64,000 nucleotides of DNA from positions 677-64,676 of the forward strand of contig JBEKNT010000001.1 in the NCBI GenBank assembly GCA_049522565.1, given 5' to 3'. Made by a program: the position numbers and the translations under genes. The DNA is from Acetobacteraceae bacterium (GTDB taxonomy: Bacteria; Pseudomonadota; Alphaproteobacteria; Acetobacterales; Acetobacteraceae). Numbering within the stretch: position 1 is the first letter of the stretch; each line of letters starts with the position of its first letter. Of this stretch, positions 19,021 to 57,297 are shown in pieces. The notes under the pieces are model-generated. The model was not told where the DNA came from, searched no databases, and saw nothing but the letters and a program-made list of their open reading frames with translations.

Positions 19021-19228
19021 ATCGTGGCGGTCGGTGGGATCGATCCGTCAGCATCAGAACACCAGGTGCGTCCCGGCGAACCCATGGCGTCCTGCCTCGT
19101 CCAAGCCCGGAAGGGCCTGGGCACTTCCGACAGTTCCTTTCCGAATCCGCGTGCGGTAGGATCGTTTACCGCACGACGCGTCAAAGCGGGGCGGCGTGTG
19201 CGCGCCACCTCCTGTTGCCATCGGGCGA

Positions 19229-20365
19229 ATGGAGCGGGATGTGGGCAAACTGGTATCCGCCGCGATGATCGTGAAGAATGAAGAGCGCTTCCTCGCCGGC
19301 TGCCTGGACAGCCTCGCCGGCCTGATTGACGAGATCGTCGTCGTCGATACCGGATCCACCGATCGCAGCCGCGAGATCGCCGCCGCGCATGGCGCGCGCG
19401 TCCACCACCACGCATGGCGCGAGGATTTCTCGGCGGCGCGCAATGAGGCGCTGGACCAAGCCGTCGGCGACTGGATTCTTTATATCGATGCCGACGAACG
19501 GGTGCGTCCCTATGACCGCGCCCGGCTGGAACAGGACCTCGCCGATCCCGCCCTGTGCGCCATCACGGTACGCTTCCATCCGCGCACCGGCTACACCGCC
19601 TATCCCGAGTACCGGCTGTTCCGGCGCGATCCGCGCATCCGTTTCCGTGGCGCGATCCACGAGACAATGCTGCCCGATATCCACCGGATGGTTGCGACCG
19701 GGGAAGGACGCTGCGGATCGAGCAGGCTGACCATCGATCATCTCGGCTACGATGGCGATCAGTCGCACAAGCTGCCGCGGAACCTGGCATTGCTGGAGAA
19801 GGAGGTGCGCGTCAATCCCGAGCGGATGTATCTCTGGTGGCACCTTGGCACCGTCTATCGCGATCTCGGCCGGATCGAGGAGGCCGAAACCGCCTGGCAA
19901 ACCGGCGTCGCGATCGCCCGGCGCGCGCAACCGTGCCCGCCCGAAGCGTCGCTGTGTTTCGTCGAACTCATCCGGCGGCGTCTCGACGTCGGGCAGGACG
20001 CGCTGCCCCTGCTGCACGAGGCGATCGCCTTGCAGCCGGAAGACCCGTTCCTGCACTGGCTCATGACGCAGGCGCTGATGGCGGTCGGGCGGTATGAGGA
20101 TGCCGTGGCGGTTTTCGAACGCCTCGCCGCCATCGATCCGGAGACATTGGTGACGTATTTCGCCTACGACCGACGGGTTCTCGGTGCAGGCGCGCTGGCG
20201 GAAGCCGGCCAGTGCGCCTTCCGCATGGGCCGTTGGCGGGAGAGCGAGGCGTTCTTCCGCCGCGCCGAGTGGCGCTGCCCGGACAACCTCGAATTCCGCG
20301 TCAAACGTCAACTCGCCGCCGCGCGCGCCGCCGCCGCCGCCGCGTCGGAGGGCGCGCCGGCTTGA
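19229..20365 (+). CDS. Family 2 glycosyltransferase with C-terminal TPR-like repeats
   Basis: SAAMIVKNEERFLAGCLDSLAGLIDEIVVVDTGSTDRS...ILYIDADERV (GT2 DxD). The C-terminal half has TPR-like helices (LGTVYRDLGRIEEAETAWQTG...). Start is uncertain: ATG 19229, GTG 19241 with GGAG 6 nt upstream, or track 19196. Confidence 0.8.
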   Translation: MERDVGKLVSAAMIVKNEERFLAGCLDSLAGLIDEIVVVDTGSTDRSREIAAAHGARVHHHAWREDFSAARNEALDQAVGDWILYIDADERVRPYDRARLEQDLADPALCAITVRFHPRTGYTAYPEYRLFRRDPRIRFRGAIHETMLPDIHRMVATGEGRCGSSRLTIDHLGYDGDQSHKLPRNLALLEKEVRVNPERMYLWWHLGTVYRDLGRIEEAETAWQTGVAIARRAQPCPPEASLCFVELIRRRLDVGQDALPLLHEAIALQPEDPFLHWLMTQALMAVGRYEDAVAVFERLAAIDPETLVTYFAYDRRVLGAGALAEAGQCAFRMGRWRESEAFFRRAEWRCPDNLEFRVKRQLAAARAAAAAASEGAPA

Positions 20366-20392: not shown

Positions 20393-21904
20393 GTGGACGT
20401 GTCTGACTGGCAGCAGCTCAAAGTCGGGTTTGCGCAGGCGGCCGACGCCGACGCGCCATTCCCGGTGGACCGCTTCGCCGGCCGGGGCGTCGTCATCTGC
20501 GCCGGTGGCGCACGCATGTTCACCTGTGCCTGGATCACCATCGCGCTGCTGCGCCGGCACCTCGGCTGCACCCTGCCCATCGAGGTCTGGCATATGGGAC
20601 CGCAGGAGATGGGTCCGCCGATGCGCGGCTTTCTCGAGGAGCTGGGGGCGGCGGTGGTGGACGCCCACGAAGTGGCCAAGCGCCATCCGGTCGAGCGCCT
20701 CGGCGGCTGGGAGCTGAAGGCCTATGCCGTGCTGCATTCGCGTTTCGCCGAGGTGCTGCTGCTCGATGCCGACAATCTTCCGGTGCGCGATCCTGCCTTC
20801 CTGTTCGAGCGGCCGGAGTATCAGGAATCCGGCGCGCTGTTCTGGCCGGACATCGTTCGTCTGGCCCGATCGAACGAGGTCTGGAGCGTCGGCGACATCG
20901 CGTACCGCGACATGCCGTCGTTCGAATCCGGCCAGATGGTGCTGGACAAGGCGCGCTGCTGGCGCGCGCTGTGCCTGACTCACTGGATCAACCAGCATTC
21001 CGACCAGTTCTACCGCTTCCTGCACGGCGACAAGGATACCTTCCTGCTGGCCTGGCTGCGGCTGCGACAACCGTTTCACCTGATACGGCATCCACCGAAG
21101 ACGCTGTACGGCACGCTGTGCCAGCGCGACACCGACGGCGCCGTGCTGTTCCAGCACCGCAATTGGGCCAAATGGATTCTGCATGGCGACAATCCGCGCA
21201 TCGCCGGGTTCCGCCTGGAAGACGAGTGCCGCGCCCTGCTGGAAGAGCTGAAGCTGGCGTGGGACGGCCGCGTGTTCAATCCGCCGCCCCGCTCCGACGC
21301 AGCCAGGTCTATCGAAAACCTGCTCGCGCGGACGCGGGATTTCACGCTCACCCGGGTGTCCTCGGACGAGCGGCGGGTCGCCTTGCTGCCGGATCACCGC
21401 GTCGGTGGGGGCGTCAGTTTCGAGCGCTATTGGTATGTCGCCGACGGCCATCCCGACCCAGAGCTGAGGATCGAAGGCGAGGGCGTGCCGGTCCACACCC
21501 TGCGTCAGGATGGCGACGGGGTGTGGCGCGGCCGGATGCTGCAACCGCCCGGCATGCCGGTAGAGCTTGCGCCGTTTGCGTCGCCGGTAACCCACCCCGT
21601 ATCCGATGCGATGTCGGAGGTGTTGTTGGCACTTCTCGACGGTGTGCTCGACATCGGCGCGGCAATGCCGACCGACCGCGAGGTCGCTCGCGATGTGCTC
21701 GGCGCACTGCGTCTTTTCTCGGCCATCGACCCCGTCGTGGCCGAGCGTCTGGCGCAGGACGACGAGGCCTGGGTGACCACGCCGGCGCGGGCGCGCCTGA
21801 TCCGGTCGGTGCGCGCGGCCCTCGCCGCGAGCGGCGATATAGCGCCGGGACGCAATTGGCTGGGCCGGGGCTTCGCGCTCACCACCGGCTATGAGCGCCT
21901 GTGA
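20393..21904 (+). CDS. GT71-like glycosyltransferase (Mnn1/Mnn2/Mnn5 alpha-mannosyltransferase-type, Mannosyl_trans3-like)
   Basis: 503-aa ORF with GTG start. GVVICAGGARMFTCAWITIALLRRHLGCTLPIEVW, FAEVLLLDADNLPVRDPAFLFE, SGALFWPD, FESGQMVLDK and HGDKDTFLLAW closely match my recollection of the fungal Mnn2/Mnn5 family signature. Confidence 0.75.
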   Translation: MDVSDWQQLKVGFAQAADADAPFPVDRFAGRGVVICAGGARMFTCAWITIALLRRHLGCTLPIEVWHMGPQEMGPPMRGFLEELGAAVVDAHEVAKRHPVERLGGWELKAYAVLHSRFAEVLLLDADNLPVRDPAFLFERPEYQESGALFWPDIVRLARSNEVWSVGDIAYRDMPSFESGQMVLDKARCWRALCLTHWINQHSDQFYRFLHGDKDTFLLAWLRLRQPFHLIRHPPKTLYGTLCQRDTDGAVLFQHRNWAKWILHGDNPRIAGFRLEDECRALLEELKLAWDGRVFNPPPRSDAARSIENLLARTRDFTLTRVSSDERRVALLPDHRVGGGVSFERYWYVADGHPDPELRIEGEGVPVHTLRQDGDGVWRGRMLQPPGMPVELAPFASPVTHPVSDAMSEVLLALLDGVLDIGAAMPTDREVARDVLGALRLFSAIDPVVAERLAQDDEAWVTTPARARLIRSVRAALAASGDIAPGRNWLGRGFALTTGYERL

Positions 21905-23643
21905 TGCCGGAACCACAAGCCGGCGTGCCGGAAACGGTGTTGATTCTCACGCCAGTGAAGAACGCGGCCCGCTTTGCGGACAGCTATTTTGCCGCCCTGG
22001 CCAGGCTCACCTACCCGGCGGAGCAAATCTCGCTGGGCCTGCTGGAGAGCGACAGCGAGGACGACAGCTTCGCCTGCTTCGCGGCCCGGCTTGCCGGTCT
22101 ATCGCCGCCCTATGCCAGCGCCAGGATCTGGCGCAAGGATTTCGGCTACCGCATTCCTCCTGCTCTGCCCCGCTGGGCCCACGCGATCCAACTGCCACGC
22201 CGCAAGGTGCTGGCGAAGGCCCGCAACCATCTGCTGTTCCGCGCGCTCGACGACCACGATTGGGTGCTTTGGCTCGACGCCGACGTCATCGACTATCCGC
22301 CGGACCTGATCCAGCGGCTGCTCGCCACCGGGCGCGACATCGTTCATCCGCACTGCGTGCAGCAGCCGGGCGGCCCGACCTTCGATCGCAACGGATGGCG
22401 GGAGCATGGGCGCGTCCTGCTGGAGGATCTGCGGGACGGCCCCGACCTGGTGCGACTCGATTCGGTCGGCGGCACGGTGCTTCTGGTACGCGCCGACCTG
22501 CATCGCGACGGCCTGATCTTTCCCAGCTTTCCTTATGGCGCGGCAAACCGGGCCGTGCGCTACCCCCACCCGCTTGGGGTCAATGGCGAGTTGGAGACCG
22601 AGGGCCTGGGGATCATGGCGCTCGACATGGGGCATCAGTGCTGGGGCATGCCGAAGCTGGAAGTGCTGCACGCGCCCGACCCGCCGTCGGCCGCTGACCA
22701 GCCGGCAACGGCGCCGACCGCCAGCGCGCCGCCGGAGTCCGCTGACAACCGCTGGCGCCGCCAGATCCGCCTGCTGTCCTGCATGTTCGAGATCGAGACC
22801 GATTCGCCGGCGGTGCGGGATGCGCTCGACTTCTACGCGGTAACGGCGGAACAGCAGGTGCCGATCGACTATCGCGAGGATCTCACCCTGACCTGGACCG
22901 GCGATGCTTTCCGGCTCGCGAGCGGCGGGGCCGCGGAGGATTTCGAGATCGACCTCAACACCATTCTCGAGTCGCTGCATCAGCGTATCCAGGACCGCGC
23001 GGTATCGGCACTTGGCGACCATGGCTTCATCGCTGCTGCGTGCGGATGGCACGGCGCTGAGCATTTCCTGCTGCTCGGTGCCGCGGGTGCCGGCAAAACG
23101 AGCCTCGCCACGCGGCTGATGCTGGATGGCTTCGACCTCTCCGGCGACGCATGGGTGTTATTGCGCGACGGTCAGGCCACCGCGTGGCCGCGGCAGTTCC
23201 AGATTACCGAGGAATCCGTTGCCCTGCTGCCGCACCTGGCGAAGATCGAGCAACTTCGTGCCATCGCAGCGCAACCGCGTGCCGGCTACCGGGTGCGGCT
23301 CGATCCGCAGCATTTGGGGAGGCCGTGGCGGATTCGCCCCGCCCCGGTCTGCGCGATCTTCGACCTCGAACCCAATTTCGGCGCTCGCAGCACCATCCGG
23401 CCCTGCGGCAAGGTCGACATGGTGCGCCGCGTCATGGCGCGGTCGCTGGCGCCGGCCGTGCAGCACGACACCTGGCTCGCCGGTCTCTGTGCCGTCGTGG
23501 AGCGGGCGGCCACCTATGTCGTTGAACTCGGCGATCTCGATAGCGCCGCGGCGGCGATCGCGGACCGGCTGTCCCGCGCTGGCGCTTCCCAGGTCACGGC
23601 CGGGCTCGAATCGGCCACCTGTGCAGAAGCGGTGCCGCGATAG
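21901..23643 (+). CDS. Fusion protein: N-terminal GT62-like (Anp1/Mnn9/Van1-type) glycosyltransferase, C-terminal HprK-like P-loop domain
   Basis: 580-aa ORF overlapping the upstream stop (GTGATG). N-terminal half: TVLILTPVKNAARF...LTYPAEQISLGLLESDSED, LAKARNHLLFRAL..WVLWLDADVIDYPPDLIQRL, GGTVLLVRADLHRDGLIFPSFPYG, ETEGLGIMALDMG. C-terminal half (about nt 22768 onward): AACGWHGAEHFLLLGAAGAGKTSLATRLMLDGFDLSGDAWVLL, like HPr-kinase-related P-loop proteins. Confidence 0.72.
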   Translation: MMPEPQAGVPETVLILTPVKNAARFADSYFAALARLTYPAEQISLGLLESDSEDDSFACFAARLAGLSPPYASARIWRKDFGYRIPPALPRWAHAIQLPRRKVLAKARNHLLFRALDDHDWVLWLDADVIDYPPDLIQRLLATGRDIVHPHCVQQPGGPTFDRNGWREHGRVLLEDLRDGPDLVRLDSVGGTVLLVRADLHRDGLIFPSFPYGAANRAVRYPHPLGVNGELETEGLGIMALDMGHQCWGMPKLEVLHAPDPPSAADQPATAPTASAPPESADNRWRRQIRLLSCMFEIETDSPAVRDALDFYAVTAEQQVPIDYREDLTLTWTGDAFRLASGGAAEDFEIDLNTILESLHQRIQDRAVSALGDHGFIAAACGWHGAEHFLLLGAAGAGKTSLATRLMLDGFDLSGDAWVLLRDGQATAWPRQFQITEESVALLPHLAKIEQLRAIAAQPRAGYRVRLDPQHLGRPWRIRPAPVCAIFDLEPNFGARSTIRPCGKVDMVRRVMARSLAPAVQHDTWLAGLCAVVERAATYVVELGDLDSAAAAIADRLSRAGASQVTAGLESATCAEAVPR

Positions 23644-23876: not shown

Positions 23877-25196
23877 ATGACGACCGGGGCCGGGTCGGGG
23901 GACGGTGCTCCCGATCGCGGCCGGGGAAGCACGCCGATACCCCGGCCGAGCCTGGTTTATGTCACGCCGCTGATGCCGCGGACCACCGGCAACGGCCTGG
24001 CGATGCGCGCGGCGGCGATCCTGGAGGCCCTGGCACAGTGCTTCGAAGTCCACCTGTTCGTGGTGCCGGTCGCCGGCGAGGCCGGGCCGCCATGCGATTT
24101 CGTCCGCCGTTATGCGGCGCGTAGCGTCGTGCTGGATCTGGCGCAGACGCTAGATCCGCTGTTCGCGCTGATTACCAGCATCCGCGATCCGGTGGAACGC
24201 GCGCAGGCCGCGTTGGCCTATCCGAAGCCGTTCCTGAGCCGCGCCTGCACCAGCGAGAGCGGGCGTCACCTCGTCGCGTGGAGCCGCGACATCCGGCCGC
24301 GGGCGGTTCACGTCATGCGGCTGTACCTCGCGCCCGTCATCGATCCCTTCCTGCGCATGCGGCAGCCGGACCGCCCGTTCCGCGTGCTCGATCTCGACGA
24401 TGACGAGGTCGTCTCGCATGAACGTCTCGCCGCGTTGTACGACGCCGCGGGTGATGCGAGCACGGCGCGGGCCATGCGTGCGGAGGCGCGGAAGTATCGC
24501 AGCTTCGCCGCCCGCTACCTGCCCGTGTTCGACCGGGTGGGCGTGTGCTCTGCGCTGGACGCGCGCCGTCTGGCCGATTGCTTCCCTGGCGCGCGGTTTG
24601 CTGTCCTGCCCAACAGCATCGGCGCGCGCCCCCGTGCGCCGCGGCCGATGGCCCGTCAGGCACTGCGGCTGTTGTTCGTCGGGACGCTCGGGTATTTTCC
24701 GAATACCGATGCGGCACTGTTCCTCTGCGGCGAGGTGCTCCAAGTCTTGCGCCGGCTGACCGATCGCGTGATTGTGATAGACGTGGCCGGGGCGGGCGAT
24801 ACCAGCGCCTTGCGAGACCTTGCCCGAAACCCGGAGGTGACGCTGCACGGATACCTGGAGGACCTGGCGCCGCTTTACACCGCAGCCGACATGGCGGTGG
24901 TCCCGCTGCGCTCCGGCGGCGGCACGCGGATCAAAATCCTTGAAGCCTTTGCGTATGGTGTGCCGGTGGTGGCCACCCGCCTCGCGGCCGAGGGCATCGC
25001 GGTGACGGATGGCGACCATCTGCTGCTCGCCGACGATGCCGAAAGCTTCGCGCGCGCTTGCCTCGCGACTGCACAACGGCCTGATCTTGCCGCCGCGCGC
25101 GCCGAACGCGCCGCGCGCCTGGTCACGACGCAGCACAGCCCCAAGCGGTTGCAGGACGCCGTTGCGGCGCTTTACGCCGGCGCGGATTTCACCTGA
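23877..25196 (+). CDS. Family 4 (GT-B) glycosyltransferase
   Basis: 439-aa ORF. LLFVGTLGYFPNTDA..., LHGYLEDLAPLYTAADMAVVPLRSGGGTRIKILEAFAYGVPVVATRLAAEGI (EX7E-type C-terminal region). The ATG abuts the right arm of the repeat, so the exact start is uncertain. Confidence 0.82.
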   Translation: MTTGAGSGDGAPDRGRGSTPIPRPSLVYVTPLMPRTTGNGLAMRAAAILEALAQCFEVHLFVVPVAGEAGPPCDFVRRYAARSVVLDLAQTLDPLFALITSIRDPVERAQAALAYPKPFLSRACTSESGRHLVAWSRDIRPRAVHVMRLYLAPVIDPFLRMRQPDRPFRVLDLDDDEVVSHERLAALYDAAGDASTARAMRAEARKYRSFAARYLPVFDRVGVCSALDARRLADCFPGARFAVLPNSIGARPRAPRPMARQALRLLFVGTLGYFPNTDAALFLCGEVLQVLRRLTDRVIVIDVAGAGDTSALRDLARNPEVTLHGYLEDLAPLYTAADMAVVPLRSGGGTRIKILEAFAYGVPVVATRLAAEGIAVTDGDHLLLADDAESFARACLATAQRPDLAAARAERAARLVTTQHSPKRLQDAVAALYAGADFT

Positions 25197-25207
25197 GAGT
25201 GCCGGGC

Positions 25208-25477
25208 ATGACCGAAACGACAACCGATCGGCCCGACAAGACGGTGGGCCTCGAAATCAATCCGGTGACCGACGGCTATATCATCTACCAAGCCGACCGT
25301 GACCGCGTGCACTACCTCAACCAGACCGCGGCGATCGTGTTCGAGTTGTGCAATGGTCACAATGCAATAGACGATCTGGCGCGAATGGTGCAGCAGGCCT
25401 GGCAGTTGACGTCGCCGCCGACCGAGGACGTGATGGAGTGCCTCGATGCGCTGCGGCAGGAGGGACTGATCCGCTGA
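25208..25477 (+). CDS. PqqD-family protein (RiPP-recognition-element-like peptide chaperone)
   Basis: About 90 aa. INPVTDGYIIYQADRDRVHYLNQTAAIVFELCNGHNAIDDLARMVQQAW...DVMECLDALRQEGLI matches the PqqD-family pattern. Alternative GTG start at 25199, 3 nt after the GT4 stop. Confidence 0.78.
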   Translation: MTETTTDRPDKTVGLEINPVTDGYIIYQADRDRVHYLNQTAAIVFELCNGHNAIDDLARMVQQAWQLTSPPTEDVMECLDALRQEGLIR

Positions 25478-25569: not shown

Positions 25570-26448
25570 ATGGACCAGGACGAGGTTCCGGAAGTCCTGC
25601 TGGCTTGCGTGGATCAGAGCAGGCGCACTTTCGTTCGCAAGTTGATCATCGGTAGCGGGTTCGTCAGCCCGATGGTGTCGTCGTTTGCCATGGGGGGGCT
25701 GGCCCTCGCGCAAACTGTTCCGCTCGGGTCGAACCTCACCAGCCCCGCACCATCGCCGTCTCCCTCCGGTCCGATCGGGTCGAACCTTACCGGCCCGTCT
25801 CCCGCTCCTGGGCGCTCTCCGACCGGCAGCCCGGCGCCAGCGCCGTCTCCCTCCGGTCCGATCGGGTCGAACCTCACCGGGCCGTCTCCCGCTCCTGGGC
25901 GCTCTCCGACCGGCAGCCCGGCACCATCGCCGTCTCCCTCCGGCCCGATCGGGTCGAATCTTGGCGGCCCGATCGGGTCGAATCTTGGCGGTCCGATCGG
26001 GTCGAATATCCGCGGCCCGATCGGGTCGAACCTTGGCGGTCCGATCGGGTCGAACCTCGGCGGTCCGATCGGGTCGAACCTCGGCGGTCCGATTGGGTCG
26101 CACATCCGCGGCCCGATCGGGTCGAACCTCGGCGGTCCGATCGGGTCGAACCTCGGCGGCCCGATCGGGTCCCACATCCGCGGTCCGATCGGGTCGAACC
26201 TCGGAGGTCCGGCGCCATCGCCGTCTCCCGGCGGCCCGATCGTCAGCCCGGCACCAGCGCCGTCGCCCTCTGGTTCGACGCCTTCGGGATCGCCCGCCCC
26301 CGGACCGGCCAGCGCGGTGCCTGAGCCGGCCAGCGCACTGCTGCTCGGCAGCGCTGTCGCCCTGACCGGTGGTGGCCTGCTGGCGCGTCGCGTGCGCGAG
26401 CGTGTGCGCCAACTGTTGGAGAAATGGGCCGAGGGGGAGGACCGATAG
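25570..26448 (+). CDS. Tat-signal, PEP-CTERM-anchored repeat protein (Ser/Pro-rich blocks + 11 tandem GPIGS(N/H)(L/I)(G/R) octads)
   Basis: ATG preceded by GGAGGGGAG. Twin-arginine motif SRRTFVRKL (25618-) followed by a hydrophobic stretch ending ALA-Q. Two 29-aa units SPAP(S/A)PSPSGPIGSNLTGPSPAPGRSPTG. 11 consecutive octads. C-terminus AVPEPASALLLGSAVALTGGGLLARRVRERVR (PEP at 26320-26328) is a PEP-CTERM-type sorting signal, with an unusually long 11-aa tail after the basic cluster. Confidence 0.8.
   Translation: MDQDEVPEVLLACVDQSRRTFVRKLIIGSGFVSPMVSSFAMGGLALAQTVPLGSNLTSPAPSPSPSGPIGSNLTGPSPAPGRSPTGSPAPAPSPSGPIGSNLTGPSPAPGRSPTGSPAPSPSPSGPIGSNLGGPIGSNLGGPIGSNIRGPIGSNLGGPIGSNLGGPIGSNLGGPIGSHIRGPIGSNLGGPIGSNLGGPIGSHIRGPIGSNLGGPAPSPSPGGPIVSPAPAPSPSGSTPSGSPAPGPASAVPEPASALLLGSAVALTGGGLLARRVRERVRQLLEKWAEGEDR
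25741..25914 (+). repeat. 2 x 87-bp in-frame tandem repeat (a third partial copy runs to 25941)
   Basis: Near-identical DNA units encoding SPAP(S/A)PSPSGPIGSNLTGPSPAPGRSPTG. Confidence 0.85.
25942..26205 (+). repeat. 11 x 24-bp in-frame tandem repeat (GGCGGTCCGATCGGGTCGAACCTC consensus)
   Basis: Contiguous units with only synonymous or near-synonymous variation. Units 3, 7 and 10 encode the NIR/HIR variants. Confidence 0.9.
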
Positions 26449-27755
26449 CCCGTCGATCGATCAGGATCGTGCTGGCAGCGGCCGGGATAGCCGCCCTCGC
26501 GGCCGGCAGTATCGCGTTGCGGCCGTGGTTTGCGACTCCGCGCTCGGTCGGCGAAATCCGGCGACTGGTCGCAGCGCACGACAGCGACGCGGCACTTCGC
26601 GTCGCAGCCGATCTTCTGGCGCGCGACCCCGCCGATCCGCGGCTGCTTGAGATCCTGGACACGCTGTTTGCCGGGCTGTGCGACGCGGCGACCGGCGAGC
26701 CGGCGGCGCCCCGTTCCGGCGCCGCGGTACGGCGCATCACCATCACCCTGCGGAATGCCCTGCGCAACGGTCCGGAAAGTCCTGTCGCCGACGAGGTTTT
26801 CGGGAAGTTCGCCGTTGCCGGCGGTTATAACGAACTGGCTGCCGCCGCCCTGCGGCGCGCCGAGACCCTGGGCGTGCCCGCGGATCGCGTGGACGCGCCG
26901 CTGGCCCTGGCACTGCTGCGGGCTGGCCGGTATCAGGATGTGCTTCAGATGACCCAGCCCGAGGCAGCGTCTTCGCCCCGGCATCGCGCCGTGTTGCTGA
27001 CGTTGCAGGCACGTGCCTATCTCGGGCTTGCGCAGGATGCCGAGGCCCGCAACGGCTTCGCGGCGGCGCTCGCGTCCGATCCCGGTGACACCGATGCGCT
27101 CTCCCGCCTCGGCATGCTGGCGCTGTGGCACGACCGCGACGCATCCGCGGCCGCCGCCCTGCTGGCACGTGCCCGGGCGGCGGCGCCTGACGGGTTGCCG
27201 ACGCTGCGCCTGGCCGGCGAATACGACTATGCCACCGGCGACTATCGCGGCAGCGCGGCGGCCTATGGCGCTCTGGTGCGGCGCGGCACCCCCGAGACGT
27301 TCGACCCGATTCCTCCCAGCCTGGGAGCAGCCCGCGCTTTGACGTACGCGGGCGATCTGGCAGCGGCGCAGGCGGCGCTGGATGCCTCGCCGTTGCCCGC
27401 CGGCGATCCCGCATTGCGTTACTATCGCGCCTTGCTGGCCTATCGCGCCGGGGATTTCGAGCGCGCCGCCGACCTGGCGCAATCCCTTGCTGCCGCCTGG
27501 CCCAATTACCCGCCGCTGGAGTTGCTGCTTGGCGGCGCCTTGCTGGCCAGCGATCTTCCCGCGATGGCCGCGGCACGCCTGGCGCATTATGTTGCCGAGG
27601 TTCCGGGCGACGGCGCGGCACGCGACCTGCTGCAAAAGGCGCAGCGCGGCATGACCGATCCGATGGCCGCTATCGTGTCGCCGCAGGAATTGCTGGTGGC
27701 CCTCGGATTTCCGCTGTCCACTGGGGCAGGCTCTGCCGGGAAGGATGGTTTCTGA
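26424..27755 (+). CDS. TPR-repeat protein with N-terminal membrane anchor
   Basis: 443-aa ORF. RSIRIVLAAAGIAALAAGSIAL looks like a TM segment, followed by Ala/Leu/Arg-rich TPR-like helices (ARAYLGLAQDAEARNGFAAALASDPGDTDALSRLGMLAL...). The ATG overlaps the end of the upstream gene by 25 nt. Confidence 0.7.
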   Translation: MGRGGGPIARRSIRIVLAAAGIAALAAGSIALRPWFATPRSVGEIRRLVAAHDSDAALRVAADLLARDPADPRLLEILDTLFAGLCDAATGEPAAPRSGAAVRRITITLRNALRNGPESPVADEVFGKFAVAGGYNELAAAALRRAETLGVPADRVDAPLALALLRAGRYQDVLQMTQPEAASSPRHRAVLLTLQARAYLGLAQDAEARNGFAAALASDPGDTDALSRLGMLALWHDRDASAAAALLARARAAAPDGLPTLRLAGEYDYATGDYRGSAAAYGALVRRGTPETFDPIPPSLGAARALTYAGDLAAAQAALDASPLPAGDPALRYYRALLAYRAGDFERAADLAQSLAAAWPNYPPLELLLGGALLASDLPAMAAARLAHYVAEVPGDGAARDLLQKAQRGMTDPMAAIVSPQELLVALGFPLSTGAGSAGKDGF

Positions 27756-28544
27756 ATGCAGGAAGCGACTTTGCCGCCGCCGGCGCAGCAGCGGCTGGCA
27801 GCCCTGATGGACCGCGCCGTGGACACGCTGGAGGCATTGCTGGATGACCCTGGCCTGCCGGCAGAGCGGCGGGCCGACCTGGCGCTGCGCATGCTGGACC
27901 TCGTGCTGGCAGGCGAGACGGATGCGCCGCCGGCCACGCCCGTCAGCGGGCTGCTGCCGGCCCGGTGCTTCGCCATCCCGGATTTCCTGTCGCCCGACCT
28001 ACACGCGGCGGCGGTGGCGACGGCGCTCCAGTTGCGCGACCGCTTCGTTGCATCCTCGGTGACCAGCGCCGAGCCCGGCTACCGGCGCTCGCGCGTGCTG
28101 TACGAGGACTCCCTTCCGACGCTTTACCCCGCGATGCGGCAGGAGATCATGGCCGTGTTGCCGGCGGTATGCACGGCCCTGGTGCTGCCGGTCTTTGCCC
28201 CGAGTCATCTGGAACTGCATATGACGGTGCATGGCGACGGAGACTTCTTCAAGGTGCACACCGATACAGCGGCACCGGAGATCGCGCGGCGCACGATCAG
28301 CTTCGCCTATTACTTCATAGTACGGCAGCCGTGCGGTTTCAGCGGCGGGACTTTGCGCCTGTACGAAACGATCGACGCGGAGCCGCCGCGGCACGAGCCG
28401 GCGCGGTTCCAGGACGTGACGCCGGCGGACAACATGATCGTGTTCTTCGAAAGCCGCTTGCTGCATGAGGTGCTGCCGCTGCACGTTCCGTCAGGCACCT
28501 TCGAGGACGGCCGCTTCACCCTGAACGGCTGGCTGCAACGCTGA
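27756..28544 (+). CDS. 2OG-Fe(II) oxygenase, prolyl-4-hydroxylase-like
   Basis: 262-aa ORF starting directly after the TPR stop (TGAATG). FFKVHTDTA (HxD), ISFAYYF, FSGGTLRLYE, IVFFESRLLHEVLPL (distal His), GRFTLNGWL (Arg). Confidence 0.78.
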   Translation: MQEATLPPPAQQRLAALMDRAVDTLEALLDDPGLPAERRADLALRMLDLVLAGETDAPPATPVSGLLPARCFAIPDFLSPDLHAAAVATALQLRDRFVASSVTSAEPGYRRSRVLYEDSLPTLYPAMRQEIMAVLPAVCTALVLPVFAPSHLELHMTVHGDGDFFKVHTDTAAPEIARRTISFAYYFIVRQPCGFSGGTLRLYETIDAEPPRHEPARFQDVTPADNMIVFFESRLLHEVLPLHVPSGTFEDGRFTLNGWLQR

Positions 28545-28740: not shown

Positions 28741-29009
28741 GGTTGGCACGGCCGTCGGACGCTGCTGCGGGATGCGTTGCCGTGCTCGGTAGCCCAGGCG
28801 TGTTGCGGCGGCTGCGCCGGGCCGGCGCGTCACGGCGGATTCACGGAATGCTGCCGGGAAGCCTGACGATTGCGCGGAACGCGACGTGATGGTGCACGCA
28901 CCTGGAAGCGCCGGCCGATCGAGGTACGCAAAAACCCCCGCCCGGAGTGGATGAGTCGCGTCCCCCTCTGGGAGCGACACGCCGAACCATAAACGGGGGA
29001 ACCAAGCAC

Positions 29010-29759
29010 ATGAGCCTCGCCGCTGACGCCAAGGGCTTGCCACTGTTCTACCGCCAGGTCCGCATGCTCAACACGCTGCGCGACCAGGACCTGCGCCTGA
29101 TGCCGCCGTCCGATTATGGATTCGCGGCCGGCAGCAATTCCATTCCGCTGGTGGCCGAGGAGTTCTTCGCCGCCCAGGCGCACTATCCCATCGTTTTCGC
29201 CGGCACCGAACACCCATCGCCGGTCGCGATCGTCGGACTGCGCGACAACGAGAACCTGTTCGTCGATGCCGACGGTACCTGGCGCGCCGACAGCTATCTG
29301 CCGCTGTATGTCCGCCGGCATCCCTTCATCTTCATCAAGGGCAATGACGGCACGTTGCACCTTGGTATTGACGCCGCCTCGCCGCGGCTGTCCGCGGATC
29401 GCGGGGAGCGGCTGTTCGATGCCAACCAGCCGACCGCGCTGACCAACGGCCTGCTCAAATTCTGCTCCGCGTTCAGCCGCCAGCACGACATCGCGGCGGC
29501 GCTCGGCGCGGCGTTGCATGCCCATGCGCTGCTGACGGAGTACCGTTTCGACGTCACCGCGGCCGGCCAGGCGCATCGGGTCGGCGGCTGCCGTGTGGTG
29601 GCGGAGGACCGGCTCGCCGCCCTGCCGGATGACGTCTTCCTCGAATGGCGCCGTGCCGGCTGGCTGCCGATGATCACCGCGCATCTGCTCTCGCTGCGGC
29701 AATGGGAAGCGCTCGGCCGGCTGGCCATGGAGCGCCCCGTTGCTTCGCTCGCCGCCTGA
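29010..29759 (+). CDS. SapC family protein (function unknown)
   Basis: I place the start at ATG 29010 (GGGGGA 9 nt upstream). IPLVAEEFFAAQAHYPIVFAG...PVAIVGLRDNENLFVDADGTWRADSYLPLYVRRHPFIF matches my recollection of the SapC-family N-terminal signature. Confidence 0.72.
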   Translation: MSLAADAKGLPLFYRQVRMLNTLRDQDLRLMPPSDYGFAAGSNSIPLVAEEFFAAQAHYPIVFAGTEHPSPVAIVGLRDNENLFVDADGTWRADSYLPLYVRRHPFIFIKGNDGTLHLGIDAASPRLSADRGERLFDANQPTALTNGLLKFCSAFSRQHDIAAALGAALHAHALLTEYRFDVTAAGQAHRVGGCRVVAEDRLAALPDDVFLEWRRAGWLPMITAHLLSLRQWEALGRLAMERPVASLAA

Positions 29760-29820: not shown

Positions 29821-32800
29821 ATGGCGTTCCCTTTCCTGATGGCGGCACTGCGCGCGCATGGCGAGCGCCGGCAGCGGCGGTTGGCCGCGAATCGTCGGCA
29901 GGCCGAGGGCCGGCTGGTATTCGAGGCCCTGGAACCGCGAGTATTGCTCAGTGCCGACGCGCTGACCGTCGCCCTGAGCGGCGACGCGGCGCATCCCATG
30001 GCGCACGACGTGGTGGTCGAGGCCGTGTCGCAGGCATTGCCCAATATCGAGAGCGCCACGGTGCAAATGGTCCAGGTGGTGGACCTTGCGGCCAACGACC
30101 AGGTGCTCGCCAGCGCGCCGCTCGGCAGCGTCAGCGGGATCAAGATCACCTCCGGCACCGGCGACACCAGCCTGACCGTCGCTACCGCGTCCTTCGGCAC
30201 AGCCAATGTGCCGGCCATCACCTTCGCCGGCGGCAACGGCAACAACACGCTGGCCGTCACCGGCAGCAAGACCACCGACTGGAACATCACCGGCAACGAT
30301 GCGGGCACCGTCACCGGCAGTGCCGCGATCACCTTCACCGGTGTCGCCAACCTGAGCGGCGGCGCGGAGAACACCAACGTCTTTACGGTCACCCAGGACG
30401 GCGCCCTGACCGGCACGCTGAGCGGCACGCCGGACGGCAGCGCCGGCGGCAACGATTCGCTGGTTTTCAAGAGCGACACCGTCACCAATGCGGCTTTCAC
30501 CGCGGCAGGCCCGCATTCCGGCACGATCGACATGGACGGCTCGGTGTTCACCTATGCCGGGCTGACGCCGATCATTTTTTCCGGCAACGCCAGCAACATC
30601 ACCATCACCGGCACCGCCAACACCGACGACCTCACCCTCGCCGACACCAACGTTGCCGGCCAGCTCGAGGTCGCCAGCCTGAACAATTCGCTGGAGAGCG
30701 TCACCTTCGCCCGCCCCAGCGTCTCGCTGACGGTCGATTTCGGGACGGGCAGTAACGACAGCCTGCAGATCGGCACCGTGCAGCTTGCGGGTGCCAGCCT
30801 GACCGTCGCCGGCGGCAACGGCACCGACAGCATCTCGGTGGATGCCAATGCCTATGTCAGCACGCGGGACACCACCGGGAACGCACTGACCGCCCCCTCG
30901 GTCGGCAATTCCGGCGACCTGAGCCTGAGTGCCGAGACCATCACGGTCAACACCGGCGCCAAGCTCTACGCCAACGCCAATAGCGGGTTCACCTCGGGCG
31001 ACGTCACATTGGACGCCGGCTCCCAGGGCGGCGCCGGCCAGACCGCCGCCGCATCGATCGCCGTGCATGGCGCGCAGATCGTCGGCGGCGATGTCGATCT
31101 CGACTCCGCAGCCGGCGCGACCGCCACGATCACCCAGCAGACCCTGGCAACCCTTTCCCTCGATGCGACGGCGCAGACCGCGATCGACGGTGCCAGCGGC
31201 ATCCTCGCCACGGTCGGCGACGTGCAGATCGACGCCAATGTTGACGTCACCGGCCAGGTGACCGCGAACGCCGCGCCGCTCGGTTCGCTCAACGCCGATG
31301 CCGCGCTCGCGTTGTCGGACGTCACCGCCGATGGCGCCGCGACGGTGAGCGGCACCACCGTGCTCGGCGCAGCGGGCGCCGTGGATGTTCACAGCGGCAA
31401 CACCACCAGCGTCACGACGCTGGCGGACGGCAGCACGGGCGGCGCCACGGCCGTCGGCGGCGCGATCGCCCTCGCCGACGTCTCGACCGGCAGCACGGCG
31501 CAACTCGGCACCGGCGTGAAGGTCGCCGCGACCACGGTCGCGGTCGAGGCCGATTCCGCCGACGTGGTTGGCACCACCGCGAATGCCACTGCCGGGGGCG
31601 CAACCGCCAACGGTGCCGCCGCACAGGCCGCCCTGGCCGGCGCGACAACACCCGACGGCAGCGTGACCGTCGCCGCCGCACTCGCCGCCACCACGCTCAA
31701 GGACACCAACACCGCCACCTCGGACGCCACCACGGTCACGACCACCGGGGGCTTCGACGTAATCGCCGACACCAGCCGGCTGGTGGACACCGGCGCGATA
31801 GCAATCGGCGTCCAGGGCGGTCCCGGCGTCGGCGCCGCCGTCGCATTGAACGCGATCTCGGTCAGCAGCAGCGCGACGCTGGGCGACACATCGACCATCT
31901 ACGGCAACGCCGACGTGGATGTCGGCACGCTGCGCACCGGCGACATCTTCGGCGCCGTCGCGCTGTCGGGCGCCGGCAGCACCGATGTGGGCGTTGCCGG
32001 CGCGCTGGCGGTCAACGCCGTCTCCGACGACGCTTTTGCCGGCATCGCCGCCGCGGCGCAGGTCAGCCTGCCGACCGGCAGCCTGACGGTCGGCGTCGGC
32101 CAGGACGGCGACGCCATCACCGACGCCCTCGCGTTCCTCAACGGCGCGTCGCCGGATCCCGGCGTCGGCGCGTCGGTGGCGATCGCGCCGGTGCATTTCA
32201 GCGCCGAGGCCGGCGTCCAGGCCGGCGCGCAGCTTTCCGTCGGTACCGCGTCATCCGCGACCGAGAGCGACGCCAGCTTCTCGGTGGACGCCCAACGGAC
32301 GATCACCACCGTCGCCGACGGCGGCGTTGCGGACGGCACCGCCACCGCCGCCGCGCTGGCGCTGACCGTGGCCCAGGATGGCGCCTCCGCCGAACTCGAT
32401 GCCGGTGCGGTCGTGACCGTCCAAGGCAACCTCACCCTGACCGCGACCCAGACCAGCGACGTGCACACCTCCGGGTCCGCTGAGGCTGGCGCGACGGCCA
32501 CGGTGGCCGCCTTCGGCATCGTGCTCGACAACACCGATGCGACGACCGCCGCCACGGTGGTCGCGCAGGATGCGGTTTCGCTGACCGCCACGGGGCAGAC
32601 TGCCAGCACCACGCTGGCGACCGCGGGCCCGGTCGGCGCGCAGGACGGCGGACCCAACGCCGCGGCGCTGATCGCGGCGGAACTTGGCTTCATCGGCAAT
32701 CCGCCCGGCGTCACGCTGCCCACACCCGCCACCGCGGATGGCGCCTTCGGCGTCGCCGCCGCGATGGCGCTCGGCGTCGCGATCGGCCGCGTCTCCGCCA

Positions 32801-35800
32801 CCGTGCTGCCGGAGACCGCGTCGAAGGAGGCGATCTCCGCGCAGCAGATCTCGCTCGAGGCGGCCGGTGAGGTCACCGCGACAACGCGTGCGGACGCCTC
32901 ACCGATCGACCTGACCTCCGGCCGAGTCGATGTCGGCGCCGCGCTGGCGCTGCAAACCGGCCAGGCGATCATCGTCGCCGAGGTGGACAGCCCAATTTCC
33001 GCACCGGACATCGCCCTGTTGGCAGAAGCCGCGCCGGGCACCGGCATCACGCCAAACACCGTGGCGGGGCTGTTCACCGTGCAGGCCATCGCCGGGGCCG
33101 GCGAATCCGATGTCGGCGTGGCCGGCGCCATGGCAATCGCCGGCGACGGCATCACCGTCCAGGCATTGCTCGACAGCGCGGCGACATCGACCTCGAGCGG
33201 CGTGGTCGTCCTGGCCGCGGTCGGCGACAGTACGTCCAACGTGGACGCCACCGCTCTGTCGGCGGCCGACGGCGTTGGCGCCGGCGCGTCCTTCTCGCTC
33301 AACGTGTCCGACGCCACCGTCACCGCCGAGATCGAGGACGGCGGCTCCGTCACCGGCACCCCCGGCCTGTTGCTGGGCGCCAATGGCGGGCAGAACGCGA
33401 CCACCACCGCGGAGGGCGGGACGGACGCCGGCACCGCGACCGGCGCGGCCTTCGCTCTTGCGGTGGTCACCGACGAGATCACGGCGGGACTGACGACCAG
33501 GGCAACGGCGGCCGCCGGCACCGCCATCCTGCGGGCAACTGGCGACACCACCGCGACAACCACGACGACCGGCGCCGCCGACGGCCAGTATGCGGCGATC
33601 GGCGCCAGCCTGGCGCTCGGCATCCTGGTGGACGACGTGTCGGCCGACGTGGCCGGCAGGCTGATTGCGACCGGCCCGGTCACCATGACCGCCACCGGCA
33701 CGAACACCCAGACGACAACGGCCGATGCCGGATCGCTCGGCGCCGAGGACGGCAGCCTCAGCGCCGGTGCATTGCTCGCCAACCAGCTTGCCCTGCTCAA
33801 CGACCCGAACGGCATCATCGTGCCCGCGCTGACGACCGGTGCCGGCACCGTGGGCGTCGCGGCGGCGCTCTCCTTCGGCGTCGATGACGCCACGGTTGAG
33901 ACCGACATCTCCGGCAGGGTGTTGACCGAAGGCGATCTGACGATGACCGCCACCGGCGGTACCACCGCGAAGAGCGAAGCGAGCGGCGCGACGGTAGATC
34001 CGAGCCTGGATGGCACCGGCGTTGCCGCCGCGGTGGCCGTGATGGTCGCAACCCCCAAGGTGAGCGCGCGCATCGACGGCGACGCGCTCGCCGCCGATGC
34101 GACGCTGACCGCCAACATGGCGACACCTACCGGGCACGACATCGAGTCCAACGCGGAATCCGGCGCGGGCGATCCCAACACAGGCGTCGCCGGTTCCTTC
34201 GCGTTGACCGTTGCAGCACCTGTCACCGAGGCGGTGATCGGCGGCAGCGGCATCCTCGAAACCCTCCCGGGCGGCAATGTGACGCTGTCCGCCACGGGTG
34301 CCTCGCAGATCGCCGCGGACGCCCGGGCGGAGATCCTTGGGCCGGGCAGGTCCGGCCTGGGAGCCAGCGTCGCGCTCGACATCGCGCTCGACGACACCCA
34401 CGCGATGCTGGACCAGGGCGCCCAGGTGCTGGACGCCAACAACCTCACGCTGACCGCCAAGGGCACTTACGGTTCCGCTGCCCACGCCGAGGCGGGCGAC
34501 CAATCGGGCGGCGCTGCCGGCGCGATTGCGATCAACGTCGCCCCACAGGACACCGAGGCGGAGGCCAATCCGGGGCCCTCGCTGACCCTCACCGGCACCT
34601 TGATGCTGCAAGCGGAGCAGAACCAGGGCAGCATCGCCGATGCGAACGGCGGCTCCAGCGACCGCGGCGGCGGGTTCGGCGCCGCGCTCGCGGTCAACGC
34701 ACCGGTCGCCAGCACCACCGCCCTGCTGGATCGCGGCGCCAATGTTGCCAATGCCATCAACGTTATCGCCGATTCGACCGCCAGCGCCGAGGCGGAGGCC
34801 ACCGCCGGCATTAAAGGCGGCTCCGACGACGGCACCGCGGATGGACTGAGCGCGCAATGGCTCGGCGTGGCCGGAACCGACGGCTCCACGACACCGCCCA
34901 CCATCCCCAGCATCTCGGCGGCGCTGGCCAACGGCGCACAGCAGCTTGGACTGACGCTGCCGGAAGTGGATGCCGCCGCCGCGCTGTCGGTGGACGCCGC
35001 GTTCGGCACGACCAGCGCCAGCATCGCCGGCGGCGACCCGATCATCGCCGGCGGCAACGTCCTGGTGCTGGCGACTGGCGGCAGCACGGCGGACAGCCAG
35101 GCCGATGCCAGCGCCATCACTACCGCCGATGCCGGCGCGGTCGGCTTCGGCTTTGCGGTGGATTTCGACGACCAGGCGCTCGACGCCTCGATCGGCGCAG
35201 GCACCCCGGTCAGCGCGCAGTCGATCACGGTCCAGGCGACGGTGCCGCGCGAGCAAGCGCAGCAGGCCTCGGCGGAGGCGATGTCGGGGGCCGGCGCGTC
35301 CGACGGGATTGCCGGCGCCCTCGCGCTCAGCCTGGTGGATAACAGCACCGAGGCGCAGATTCTGAGTACCGCGCCGATCACCGCCCCGGGTTTCATTGTC
35401 GTCGAGGCGACCGGGGACACCTCCTCGGCGGCGACCGCGGGCGAGGATGTCAACGGCACAGTCGCCGGGACGGGCATCTCGCTCGCCGGGAACCTCATGG
35501 TCGATCACACCGCCGCGAACGTTATCGCGGGGGCCGACCTCAACAGCCTGGGCCAGATCCGCATCGAGGCCGACGGCACGCAGTCGCTGCAAAGCGAGTC
35601 CGCCGGCACGGCAACGGCCGGACTGGGTGCGGTGCCGGCCAGCCTGACGGCGGACGTATTGCTCGCGACGACCGCCGCATCGGTGGGCGACGGCGCCAAG
35701 ATCGATACGGGCATCACCGGCGGTACGGCAACACAGAATTTACTGGTGCTGGCGGATGACTCCACAAGTCTGAACGCGACCGCCGGCAGCCTCGGCGCCG

Positions 35801-49029: not shown

Positions 49030-49043
49030 GCCCGCGCGAGAAT

Positions 49044-49098
49044 CCTCCCCCTCGGCTTGACCCGCGTCGCGGCGCAAGCCCGCAAAGCGAGGGGGAGA
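49044..49098. repeat. Intergenic palindromic repeat, family C (CTCCCCCTCG...CTTGACCCGCGTCGCGGCGCAAGCCC...CGAGGGGGAG)
   Basis: About 80% identical by eye to 51016-51078. Terminal inverted arms CTCCCCCTCG / CGAGGGGGAG. Confidence 0.7.
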
Positions 49099-49133
49099 AT
49101 GCTTCAGCCCGCACACAAGCGGGCGATGTCACC

Positions 49134-51002: not shown

Positions 51003-51015
51003 CGGTAGGGAAGAT

Positions 51016-51078
51016 TTCTCCCCCTCCCCCCAACCTTGATCCGCTTCGCGGCTCAAGCCCACAAGGGGAGGGGGAGAA
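51016..51078. repeat. Intergenic palindromic repeat, family C
   Basis: Perfect 14-nt terminal inverted arms TTCTCCCCCTCCCC (51016-51029) and GGGGAGGGGGAGAA (51065-51078). Core CTTGATCCGCTTCGCGGCTCAAGCCC. Confidence 0.75.
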
Positions 51079-51114
51079 GACTTGCCTTTCTGCCCCGATG
51101 CCGGGCTCCCTCTG

Positions 51115-56949: not shown

Positions 56950-57297
56950 CCGGTGCGGCGAGCCGGCCGGAACGGCGGTGGACGTAGACCGGCGGGTCGT
57001 TCGGCTGGCTGCGGCCGACGATGTCTGGACCCACGGCGGACACCCTGTGGGGCGGTTCCGGGGCGACAGAGTTATGGCCCCGACGGCCGCTCTTTCGGCG
57101 AACTGATGGACGACAACCGGACTGCGTTGCGCAGCAAGCCGGCTGGCGGTCCTTGATCCGCCGCGCGGCAGCATTTCAGGTGCATCGCGGGTCCGGTGCG
57201 GGATATGAACCGCGGTTTGATGAGACAGTCTGAGATTTTCCTCGTAATCCCACGGACCCCCATGCCCCCCCCTGCCCCACCTCCCGGGACCCCAGCG

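Follow-up and report, generated by a model that had tools for sequence, protein, structure and literature searches.

The locus described here lies in a 64,000-nucleotide stretch of an Acetobacteraceae genome (GenBank assembly GCA_049522565.1, contig JBEKNT010000001.1, positions 677 to 64,676 of the forward strand; hereafter the window, in whose coordinates all positions are given). Its centre is a repeat-rich protein of 292 aa, the target, which is encoded with an ATG start by the open reading frame (ORF) 25570..26448 (+) within an operon of glycosyltransferase (GT), PqqD-family and prolyl hydroxylase-like genes. The locus resembles several known systems but is a clean member of none. With the PEP-CTERM/exosortase systems (TIGR02595; Haft et al., 2006, PMC1569441) it shares a C-terminal PEP motif followed by a transmembrane (TM) helix and an Arg-rich cluster, a low-complexity, Ser/Pro-rich mature region (the target protein has no Pfam match) and the presence of GT genes nearby. 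It differs from them in a conserved tail of 12-16 aa past the basic cluster, in a leader that is twin-arginine-like rather than an ordinary signal peptide, and in the absence of an exosortase (EpsH/Xrt) gene, none turning up in the 64 kb of the window or, in the relatives, up to a distance of 10 kb.

A further resemblance is to systems for ribosomally synthesized and post-translationally modified peptides (RiPPs) with a RiPP recognition element (RRE) of the PqqD type, such as the glycocins SunA/SunS and the lasso peptides decorated by HPr kinases. Here, too, a conserved, leader-like N-terminal module is encoded beside a PqqD/RRE gene and tailoring enzymes, among them a SunS-like GT2 enzyme with tetratricopeptide repeats (GT2-TPR) and an HPr kinase (HprK)-related domain, and the module family includes minipeptides. 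Unlike the precursors of those systems, the target is a 292-aa anchored protein, for which a small product is unlikely, and its leader is shaped as a twin-arginine translocation (Tat) signal peptide. The PqqD and HprK-like sequences of the window also stay below the cutoffs of the named NCBIfam families, and the cassette includes neither a leader protease nor an ABC exporter.

The combination of a PHD-type prolyl hydroxylase gene with genes for several cytoplasmic GTs and for a Pro-rich substrate is reminiscent of Skp1 modification in Dictyostelium and Toxoplasma (PhyA plus GTs). The likeness to plant hydroxyproline-rich glycoproteins (HRGPs), namely arabinogalactan proteins (AGPs) and extensins, is limited to AGP-like SP/AP dipeptide blocks and the adjacent prolyl hydroxylase. 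In both cases the substrate is not homologous, the GTs of our locus are of the GT2, GT4, Mnn9-like (Anp1) and Mannosyl_trans3-like types, and hydroxyproline in the target is a prediction; the plant proteins are moreover modified in the endoplasmic reticulum and Golgi after Sec-type translocation. A preliminary description of the target had called its Ser/Pro blocks AGP/extensin-like. This has to be read as an analogy, as no homology was found between the target and the HRGP backbone, or between its GTs and the Hyp-glycosylating enzymes of plants.

Repeat-rich, adhesin-like substrates that are glycosylated in the cytoplasm by co-encoded GTs prior to export are represented by the serine-rich repeat glycoproteins with accessory Sec, HMW1/HMW1C and the heptosylated autotransporters. 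These depend on SecA2/SecY2, or on Sec combined with two-partner secretion or an autotransporter, and have no PqqD, prolyl hydroxylase or RR motif. Tat proofreading (TorD, DmsD, NapD) offers a parallel for the RRxF[LV][KR] motif, the mildly hydrophobic h-region, the AxA site and the small cytoplasmic protein encoded beside the substrate. The differences are that the putative chaperone of our locus is of the PqqD/RRE fold, that its cargo is no cofactor enzyme, and that the curated Tat hidden Markov models (HMMs) are silent.

The module family and its gene cassette

The main finding exceeds the ORF itself: it is a conserved, unnamed substrate family together with a modification cassette, and the target is a repeat-amplified, PEP-CTERM-anchored member of this family. 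Substrate family, N-terminal module and cassette are genetically coupled across many uncultured bacteria, and on sequence grounds we consider it very probable that the target is a substrate of the adjacent cassette.

In the window, the operon genes are all encoded on the same strand (+) between 19196 and 28544, with gaps, in order, of 27, -4, 233, 2, 92, -25 and 0 nt. They comprise a GT2-TPR glycosyltransferase (19196..20365; Pfam Glycos_transf_2, 2e-23, plus TPR), a Mannosyl_trans3-family GT (20393..21904; PF11051, 4.5e-33), an Anp1/Mnn9-like GT with a C-terminal HprK-related P-loop domain at aa ~387-553 (21901..23643; Pfam Anp1, 3.5e-49), a GT4 glycosyltransferase (23877..25196; Pfam Glyco_trans_1_4, 8.6e-25) directly 5' of a 92-aa PqqD-family protein of the RRE-type peptide chaperones (25199..25477; Pfam PqqD, 2.9e-8, above cutoff), the target, a 443-aa TPR protein with a TM segment at aa 12-34 (26424..27755; Pfam TPR_19), whose gene overlaps the 3' end of the target gene by 25 nt, and a 262-aa PHD-type 2-oxoglutarate (2OG)/Fe(II) prolyl-hydroxylase-like enzyme (27756..28544; Pfam 2OG-FeII_Oxy_3, 3.6e-13). 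GT2-TPR and GT4 belong to the core cassette, while the Mannosyl_trans3 GT is a subfamily accessory and the TPR protein is subfamily-specific. Neither a signal peptide nor an N-terminal TM segment was found on the GTs, PqqD or the prolyl 4-hydroxylase (P4H), and the cassette enzymes are cytoplasmic as far as their sequences tell. The gene order of the window recurs around close relatives.

A full-length homolog search with the target was swamped by low-complexity words and yielded only three relatives, in which the N- and C-termini are highly conserved and the repeat core is variable. A chimeric profile of both termini outperformed the full-length query and retrieved minipeptides of 57-77 aa that consist of the N-terminal module followed by only ...ASAQTNQTSP. 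A profile of the module alone, run against 1.84 billion representatives, retrieved 640 proteins with E<=1e-3, of which 50 had E<=1e-10. The module is matched by no model of Pfam or NCBIfam, and its proteins are annotated at source merely as 'hypothetical protein' or 'pentapeptide repeats'. Their mature parts are diverse and include minipeptides, pentapeptide-repeat proteins and proteins of ~220 aa ending in P.FTG.

Motif statistics were drawn from 149 sampled representatives of the module family. Of these, 137 have RR and 12 have KR as the basic pair, followed by F at +2 (135/149), [LVI] at +3, [KR] at +4 (137/149) and [RK] at +5 (132/149); some members carry a textbook RRDFLKG. The n-region before the pair has a mean net charge of -3.5. 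The 17 residues past the basic motif are uncharged in 134 of the 149 proteins and contain a near-invariant F..P.V[SA]SF.M, the uncharged stretch spanning 17-23 residues in the family, and A.A occurs within 20 residues downstream in 108. Asn is present at +8..+30 after the module in 139 proteins, and an N-x-S/T sequon lies within 40 aa after the module in 107 of 149, compared with 40% in composition-shuffled tails.

The coupling to the cassette emerged from metagenome contigs scanned by the module pattern alone, for which a 12-sequence subset was used since the 46-sequence alignment was too diverse. Among the 31 loci obtained, 20 of the 21 with >=600 bp of upstream sequence have a same-strand PqqD or HprK-like ORF upstream, and 15 of the 18 with >=900 bp downstream have GT2-TPR or a TPR protein downstream, as counted with home-made HMMs. 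Curated Pfam models confirm GT4, PqqD and GT2-TPR in the distant loci L025 and L036. The order GT4 to PqqD recurs in L015, L020-L025, L029, L032, L034, L036, L038, L039, L043, L046-L048 and L051, GT2-TPR stands directly 3' of module genes in distant loci, and an HprK-like ORF or domain adjoins module genes in many. From the metagenome locus counts, the Pfam check in L025 and L036, and L051, we derive a core cassette of GT4 - PqqD - HprK-like - substrate - GT2-TPR. Related cassette loci are L005/L007, L010, L013/L014, L015 and L051. The Mannosyl_trans3 GT is conserved in L005, L007, L008, L015 and L021, and the TPR protein follows the target homolog in L001, L002, L005, L008, L020 and L022.

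Next to minipeptide genes stand PqqD, a radical SAM/SPASM enzyme and a SunS-like GT2 that carries an HprK-like domain as a fusion. In L010 (2636-2869 and neighbours) and L013/L014, several GT2/GT4 genes, an N-terminally extended PqqD and a polysaccharide-deacetylase-like protein accompany the radical SAM/SPASM enzyme beside them, and these minipeptides look like true RiPP-scale members of the module family. In L051, the 163-kb contig that encodes P0172, an ORF of 110 aa without a Pfam match (6501-6833) lies directly after PqqD and upstream of a 327-aa ORF, and may encode a further substrate of the same cassette.

The C-termini of the family vary as well. P0162 consists of the module, VSNVIPT and a PEP-CTERM-like tail, and has the same ManT3-Anp1(HprK-like)-GT4-PqqD cassette upstream, with no P4H. 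In the relative P0005, PEP is replaced by AEP. The 85-aa module protein P0217 has the C-terminus VPTLAEWAVPVFGAALGAAALINMKKKKDA, which we take to resemble an IPTL-CTERM sorting tag, so the module would pair with more than one C-terminal sorting signal; such tags on other members are consistent with exported proteins. About 12 of the 149 module proteins, mostly of ~210-250 aa, terminate exactly in P-x-F-T-G, or in T-T-G or V-T-G (P0145, P0146, P0170, P0172, P0187, P0207 and P0240, and the proteins of L029, L039, L040 and L047), and this ending may be an undescribed processing or sorting motif.

Because such repeat arrays assemble with errors, the family has probably been undercounted. In the nanopore-derived metagenome-assembled genome (MAG) contig CAVXNH010000082.1 (L008, 9926-11100), frameshifts break the ortholog inside the repeat array, and P0002 (L001, 10001-10864) runs on in frame into the beginning of the following (TPR) gene. 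A scan of genome contigs gave only two MAG loci, one of them this frameshifted nanopore assembly.

Architecture of the target protein

The target ATG is preceded at 5-13 nt by the Shine-Dalgarno-like sequence GGAGGGGAG. A scan for promoters and terminators gave nothing informative, Rfam gave no matches, and a database look-up of the exact protein sequence found no record. Every sequence feature listed in the preliminary description was recovered in the translation: SRRTFVRKL and the ensuing hydrophobic stretch, the 29-aa units, the octads, and the VPEP-TM-RRVRERVR terminus.

The N-terminal module (aa 1-48; 25570..25713, +) has an acidic n-region, the motif SRRTFVRK (nt 25618-25641; SRRTFVRKL as aa 17-25) and an uncharged h-region that contains the F..P.VSSF.M invariant in the family. 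The stretch L25-A47 (LIIGSGFVSPMVSSFAMGGLALA) comprises 23 uncharged residues with a mean Kyte-Doolittle value of 1.62 and ends in ALA, followed by Q48. The mature part consists of 23% Pro, 23% Gly and 19% Ser. It includes a degenerate octad copy, PLGSNLT (aa 51-57), and two 29-aa Ser/Pro units of the form SPAP[S/A]PSPSGPIGSNLTGPSPAPGRSPTG (aa 58-86 and 87-115; 25741..25914, +), each with one GPIGSNLT (at aa 67 and aa 96) and its N-L-T sequon. Eleven contiguous, in-register octads GPIGS(N/H)(L/I)(G/R) follow at aa 125-212 (25942..26205, +), recognized in the translation and by Tandem Repeats Finder, which reported a 24-nt period in 11.3 copies at 25941-26211 (87% matches) and an 87-nt period in 2.5 copies at 25740-25958 (93% matches). 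A linker rich in Ser, Pro, Ala and Gly (aa 213-249; 26206..26316, +), whose length differs between homologs, connects the array to the C-terminal domain.

The sites that vary among the 11 octad DNA copies are six third, three first and no second codon positions. As the variation avoids second codon positions, the array is constrained at the protein level in the + frame, in which homologs also keep the N- and C-termini of the target. A 673-aa antisense ORF (25614-27635) was rejected as a GC-rich artefact.

The C-terminus is PEP-CTERM-like, with VPEP at aa 250-253, a hydrophobic segment at 254-272 and RRVRERVR at 273-280. The NCBI model TIGR02595 matches aa 250-276 (26317..26397, +) with profile positions 1-23 of 24 and 19.6 bits against a cutoff of 16, and the PEP-CTERM assignment of the preliminary description thus holds against the HMM whose failure had been named as its refutation. 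The domain is also kept in P0001, P0003, L020 and L022. The match does not lie at the extreme C-terminus: 16 residues follow it, and 12 (QLLEKWAEGEDR) follow the last Arg of the basic cluster. The earlier description had noticed this tail, and had given its length as 11 residues. The segment 26398..26448 (+) comprises ...ERVRQLLEKWAEGEDR and the stop codon. Apart from its last residue the tail equals that of the L020 ortholog; as RVRERVRQLLEKWAEGED it is kept in orthologs and is atypical of the PEP-CTERM family.

Proposed modification and export of the target

The best PDB sequence matches of GT2-TPR are Listeria GmaR (1.4e-27), presumably a flagellin O-GlcNAc transferase, and the glycocin S-glycosyltransferase SunS (2e-18); the NCBIfam SunS family matches at 3.7e-19, below its cutoff. 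The enzyme is likely a protein or peptide glycosyltransferase and not a polysaccharide synthase. In PDB comparisons, the Anp1-like domain matches yeast Mnn9 (1.9e-19), the Mannosyl_trans3 GT weakly matches MNT2, and GT4 weakly matches PimA (1.6e-5). The PimA and MNT2 matches are hints of mannose chemistry. GT4 also matches TIGR03087 stp1 (3.8e-29) and the TPR protein TIGR02917 PrsT (5.4e-30), both below cutoff. PqqD likewise stays below cutoff with TIGR03859 (4.3e-8) and TIGR04353 (0.022; PqqD_rel_X, 15.7 bits against a cutoff of 35). The P-loop domain of the window matches TIGR04352 (HprK_rel_A) at 2.5e-6, far below cutoff; HprK_rel_A scores are 26.8-29.6 bits against a cutoff of 200, seven of the eight members of this domain match the model far below that cutoff, and the domain profile finds HPr kinase 1ko7 in the PDB at 2.9e-4. 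Judged by these matches the domain is distantly HPr-kinase-like, and neither it nor PqqD reaches the equivalog cutoffs of the HPr-rel-A system (TIGR04352/TIGR04353).

A single-sequence phmmer search of the PDB with the oxygenase gave chance matches only. The profile of its family retrieved prolyl hydroxylases only, with Dictyostelium PhyA (6t8m) at 1.4e-11 followed by P. putida PPHD, PHD2 and OGFOD1. In its AlphaFold2 (AF2) model (predicted local distance difference test, pLDDT, 87.7) the enzyme has a double-stranded beta-helix fold, for which Foldseek found P. putida P4H (4j25) as the closest structure (8.7e-13), then PHD2 and PhyA. H168, D170, H237 and R253, the HxD...H iron triad and the 2OG-binding Arg, are invariant. 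By profile and modelled fold the oxygenase is a PHD-type prolyl hydroxylase. It is present in every locus with a Pro-rich PEP-CTERM member that is long enough (the window, L001, L002, L005 and L008). Oxygenase and TPR protein occur only with such members (L020 and L022 as far as the contigs reach) and are absent within 8 kb in ~10 long loci with non-Pro-rich substrates. This co-variation is our main argument that the Ser/Pro blocks are the substrate of the oxygenase, and we consider it rather probable that the target is prolyl-hydroxylated. L002 has a second 2OG-FeII_Oxy_3 gene (5973-6662) ~3.3 kb upstream of the substrate gene.

The octads had been proposed to form a regular rod or solenoid on the cell surface, a reading in which the neighbouring genes are irrelevant. 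The octad unit may resemble short solenoid repeats, the register of period 8 is perfect in 11 copies, and the period is kept in L020, the closest ortholog (module 78% identical, C-terminus essentially identical). The 22 octads of L020, however, have the form xTSNTxxP (GTSNTGNP/VTSNTSSP, in perfect register) and share with GPIGSNLG the period, the S-N pair and Pro, whereas Ile and Leu are gone and with them any hydrophobic position that could point into a solenoid core. The AF2 model of the target, based on an alignment of only four sequences, shows coil with pLDDT<50 and no secondary structure at aa 30-227, the mature part is dominated by Pro, Gly and Ser, and the repeat versions of other homologs are irregular. 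We regard a solenoid as most improbable. Other members of the module family repeat other short Asn-centred units (GSNIP, GNMT, NPNQ, GTGNTDD and ANTTTTT), and because of these units, the modelled coil, the composition and the L020 octads, we read the octads as probably repeating the family's Asn-centred motif in tandem and offering acceptor sites along a disordered stalk. An ordinary exopolysaccharide locus, in which the PEP-CTERM protein would only be a neighbour of GTs and a PrsT-like TPR protein that make a free polysaccharide, is scarcely more convincing. PEP-CTERM proteins have been linked to exopolysaccharide loci (PMC1569441), and the sub-threshold matches of GT4 and the TPR protein are to families of the XrtA/PEP-CTERM system (stp1 and PrsT). 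But the cluster turned up no Wzx/Wzy/Wza, no priming transferase and no polysaccharide exporter, neither a PqqD peptide chaperone nor a prolyl hydroxylase takes part in exopolysaccharide synthesis, and GT2-TPR is nearest to protein and peptide GTs. The association of module, PqqD and GTs moreover extends to minipeptides and non-PEP-CTERM proteins in distant loci.

The export route is the more contested part. The module has the architecture of a signal peptide with a Tat-consensus basic motif. In the target, S17-R-R-T-F-V-R-K24 fits both the Tat consensus and the TatP expression RR.[FGAVML][LITMVF], lies where n- and h-region meet, among the first ~35 residues, and is followed by an uncharged, moderately hydrophobic h-region and an AxA-type site. 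The twin-arginine signal claimed in the preliminary description stands at the level of the motif only, since the curated models do not score it. The proposal that such a signal suits a substrate that is modified prior to export is strongly, if circumstantially, backed by the same-strand operon, with its four glycosyltransferases, PqqD, HprK-like domain and PHD-type prolyl hydroxylase all devoid of signal peptides and N-terminal TM segments, and by the co-occurrence of module and PqqD/GT genes in unrelated loci. Alternatively, the module could be a RiPP-type leader and/or a Sec-type signal or membrane anchor, in which RRxF is kept for recognition by PqqD or the enzymes, and export, if any, would proceed by Sec or the leader would be removed by a protease. 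The failure of the curated Tat HMMs, the acidic n-region, the conservation of F..P.VSSF.M far beyond the needs of export alone and the RiPP-precursor-like minipeptides with radical SAM/SPASM neighbours agree with this explanation. Yet the members agree with the Tat consensus, up to textbook sequences (RR in 92% and KR in 8%, F at +2, [LVI] at +3, [KR] at +4), the uncharged h-region is of fixed length and usually followed by A.A, members bear C-terminal surface-sorting tags, and we would expect cytoplasmic glycosylation to hinder passage through SecYEG. A leader or Sec signal without Tat thus appears rather unlikely, and we favour, with some reserve, export of the target via Tat.

Several observations weigh against the scheme as a whole or its parts. 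With E<=10 as the limit, neither TIGR01409 nor PF10518 scores the target or its N-terminal 54 aa, and relatives with RRDFLKG or RREFLKK stay sub-threshold (TIGR01409, 12.2-12.4 bits, cutoff 16.7; PF10518, 18 bits, cutoff 22.7). So acidic an n-region is unusual in a signal peptide, and an unfolded Pro/Gly/Ser polymer is a non-classic Tat cargo. The exosortase expected of a PEP-CTERM system was found neither in the window nor in the 10-kb surroundings of the relatives. The octad Asn precedes L-G and is not part of a sequon, so that the predicted acceptor residue is not pinpointed, and PF13640-type oxygenases can act on other residues or substrates. The HMMs behind the cassette counts were built from the window and related loci and were checked with Pfam in two loci only, and L002 has substrate, TPR protein and P4H with no GT or PqqD genes nearby.

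Taking both sides together, we posit the following chain of cytoplasmic modification, Tat-like export and membrane anchoring, towards which we lean slightly and whose chemistry and export route are deduced from sequence. In the cytoplasm, PqqD would bind the N-terminal module as an RRE binds a RiPP leader, and by analogy with the Tat proofreading chaperones TorD, DmsD and NapD it possibly masks the export signal until modification is done. GT2-TPR, the HprK-like domain and GT4 would then modify the Asn-centred motif S-N-x-T/G, which stands just after the module in most members and would be amplified to 11 + 3 copies in the target as the octads. In the alphaproteobacterial subfamily, the prolyl hydroxylase might act on proline residues in the Ser/Pro blocks, on which a mannose-type glycan might be extended by the Mnn9-like and Mannosyl_trans3-like enzymes. 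The bulky, unfolded, hydrophilic glycoprotein would exit via Tat, since a pre-glycosylated chain would fit SecYEG poorly, and signal peptidase would cut after ALA. The PEP-CTERM-like helix would hold the target in the inner membrane, either for exosortase processing or as a Tat-inserted tail anchor, and the co-translated membrane TPR protein may assist this step.

More tentatively still, the module family may represent a widespread, unnamed class of leader-guided protein and peptide glycosylation. In such a class, a twin-arginine-type signal would double as a RiPP-style leader, be read by PqqD, decorated by GT2-TPR, GT4 and HprK-like enzymes (with prolyl hydroxylase and mannosyltransferase-like enzymes added in the present subfamily) and exported by Tat, and the target would be a PEP-CTERM-anchored bacterial analogue of HRGPs. 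We found no account in the literature of a PqqD/GT cassette coupled to a twin-arginine-like leader, the coverage being incomplete and no proof of novelty. If the proposal is true, it links RiPP-style leader recognition by PqqD/RRE, cytoplasmic protein glycosylation and hydroxylation, and Tat export, which are usually treated apart, and it gives a concrete reason for a Tat-like signal on a PEP-CTERM protein. The signature RRxF[LVI][KR][KR]-x3-G-x2-F-x2-P-x-V-[SA]-S-F-x-M plus the Asn motif would then find hundreds of candidate glycopeptides and glycoproteins in uncultured bacteria, and the system would allow one to ask whether Tat carries heavily glycosylated, intrinsically disordered cargo. 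The target would also be a candidate substrate for a bacterial PHD-type prolyl hydroxylase, an enzyme group for which, to our knowledge, few bacterial substrates have been described.

Neighbouring genes outside the operon

Between the prolyl hydroxylase gene and a giant downstream ORF, the window encodes a SapC-family protein (28947-29759, +; Pfam 5.3e-61). The giant ORF (29821-49029, +) comprises 6402 aa, is rich in A, G, T, V and S, has no Pfam match, and holds near its N-terminus RLVFEALEPRVLLSAD, which we take to be the LEPR-xLL-type motif of giant secreted proteins. SapC and the giant ORF were considered as members of the system and rejected, being absent from related loci. The region after the giant ORF (49011-56265) encodes a HlyD-like adaptor, a fusion of an HExxH intramembrane metalloprotease with an adaptor-like domain, a SecA-DEAD-like protein of 733 aa and another HlyD-like protein. 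Together with the giant ORF it looks like a dedicated export system, which the related loci lack. Further 3' (57196-60047, +), a protein with a phosphoadenosine phosphosulfate (PAPS)-reductase domain is encoded together with a bifunctional CysN/CysC (sulfate adenylyltransferase/adenosine phosphosulfate kinase).

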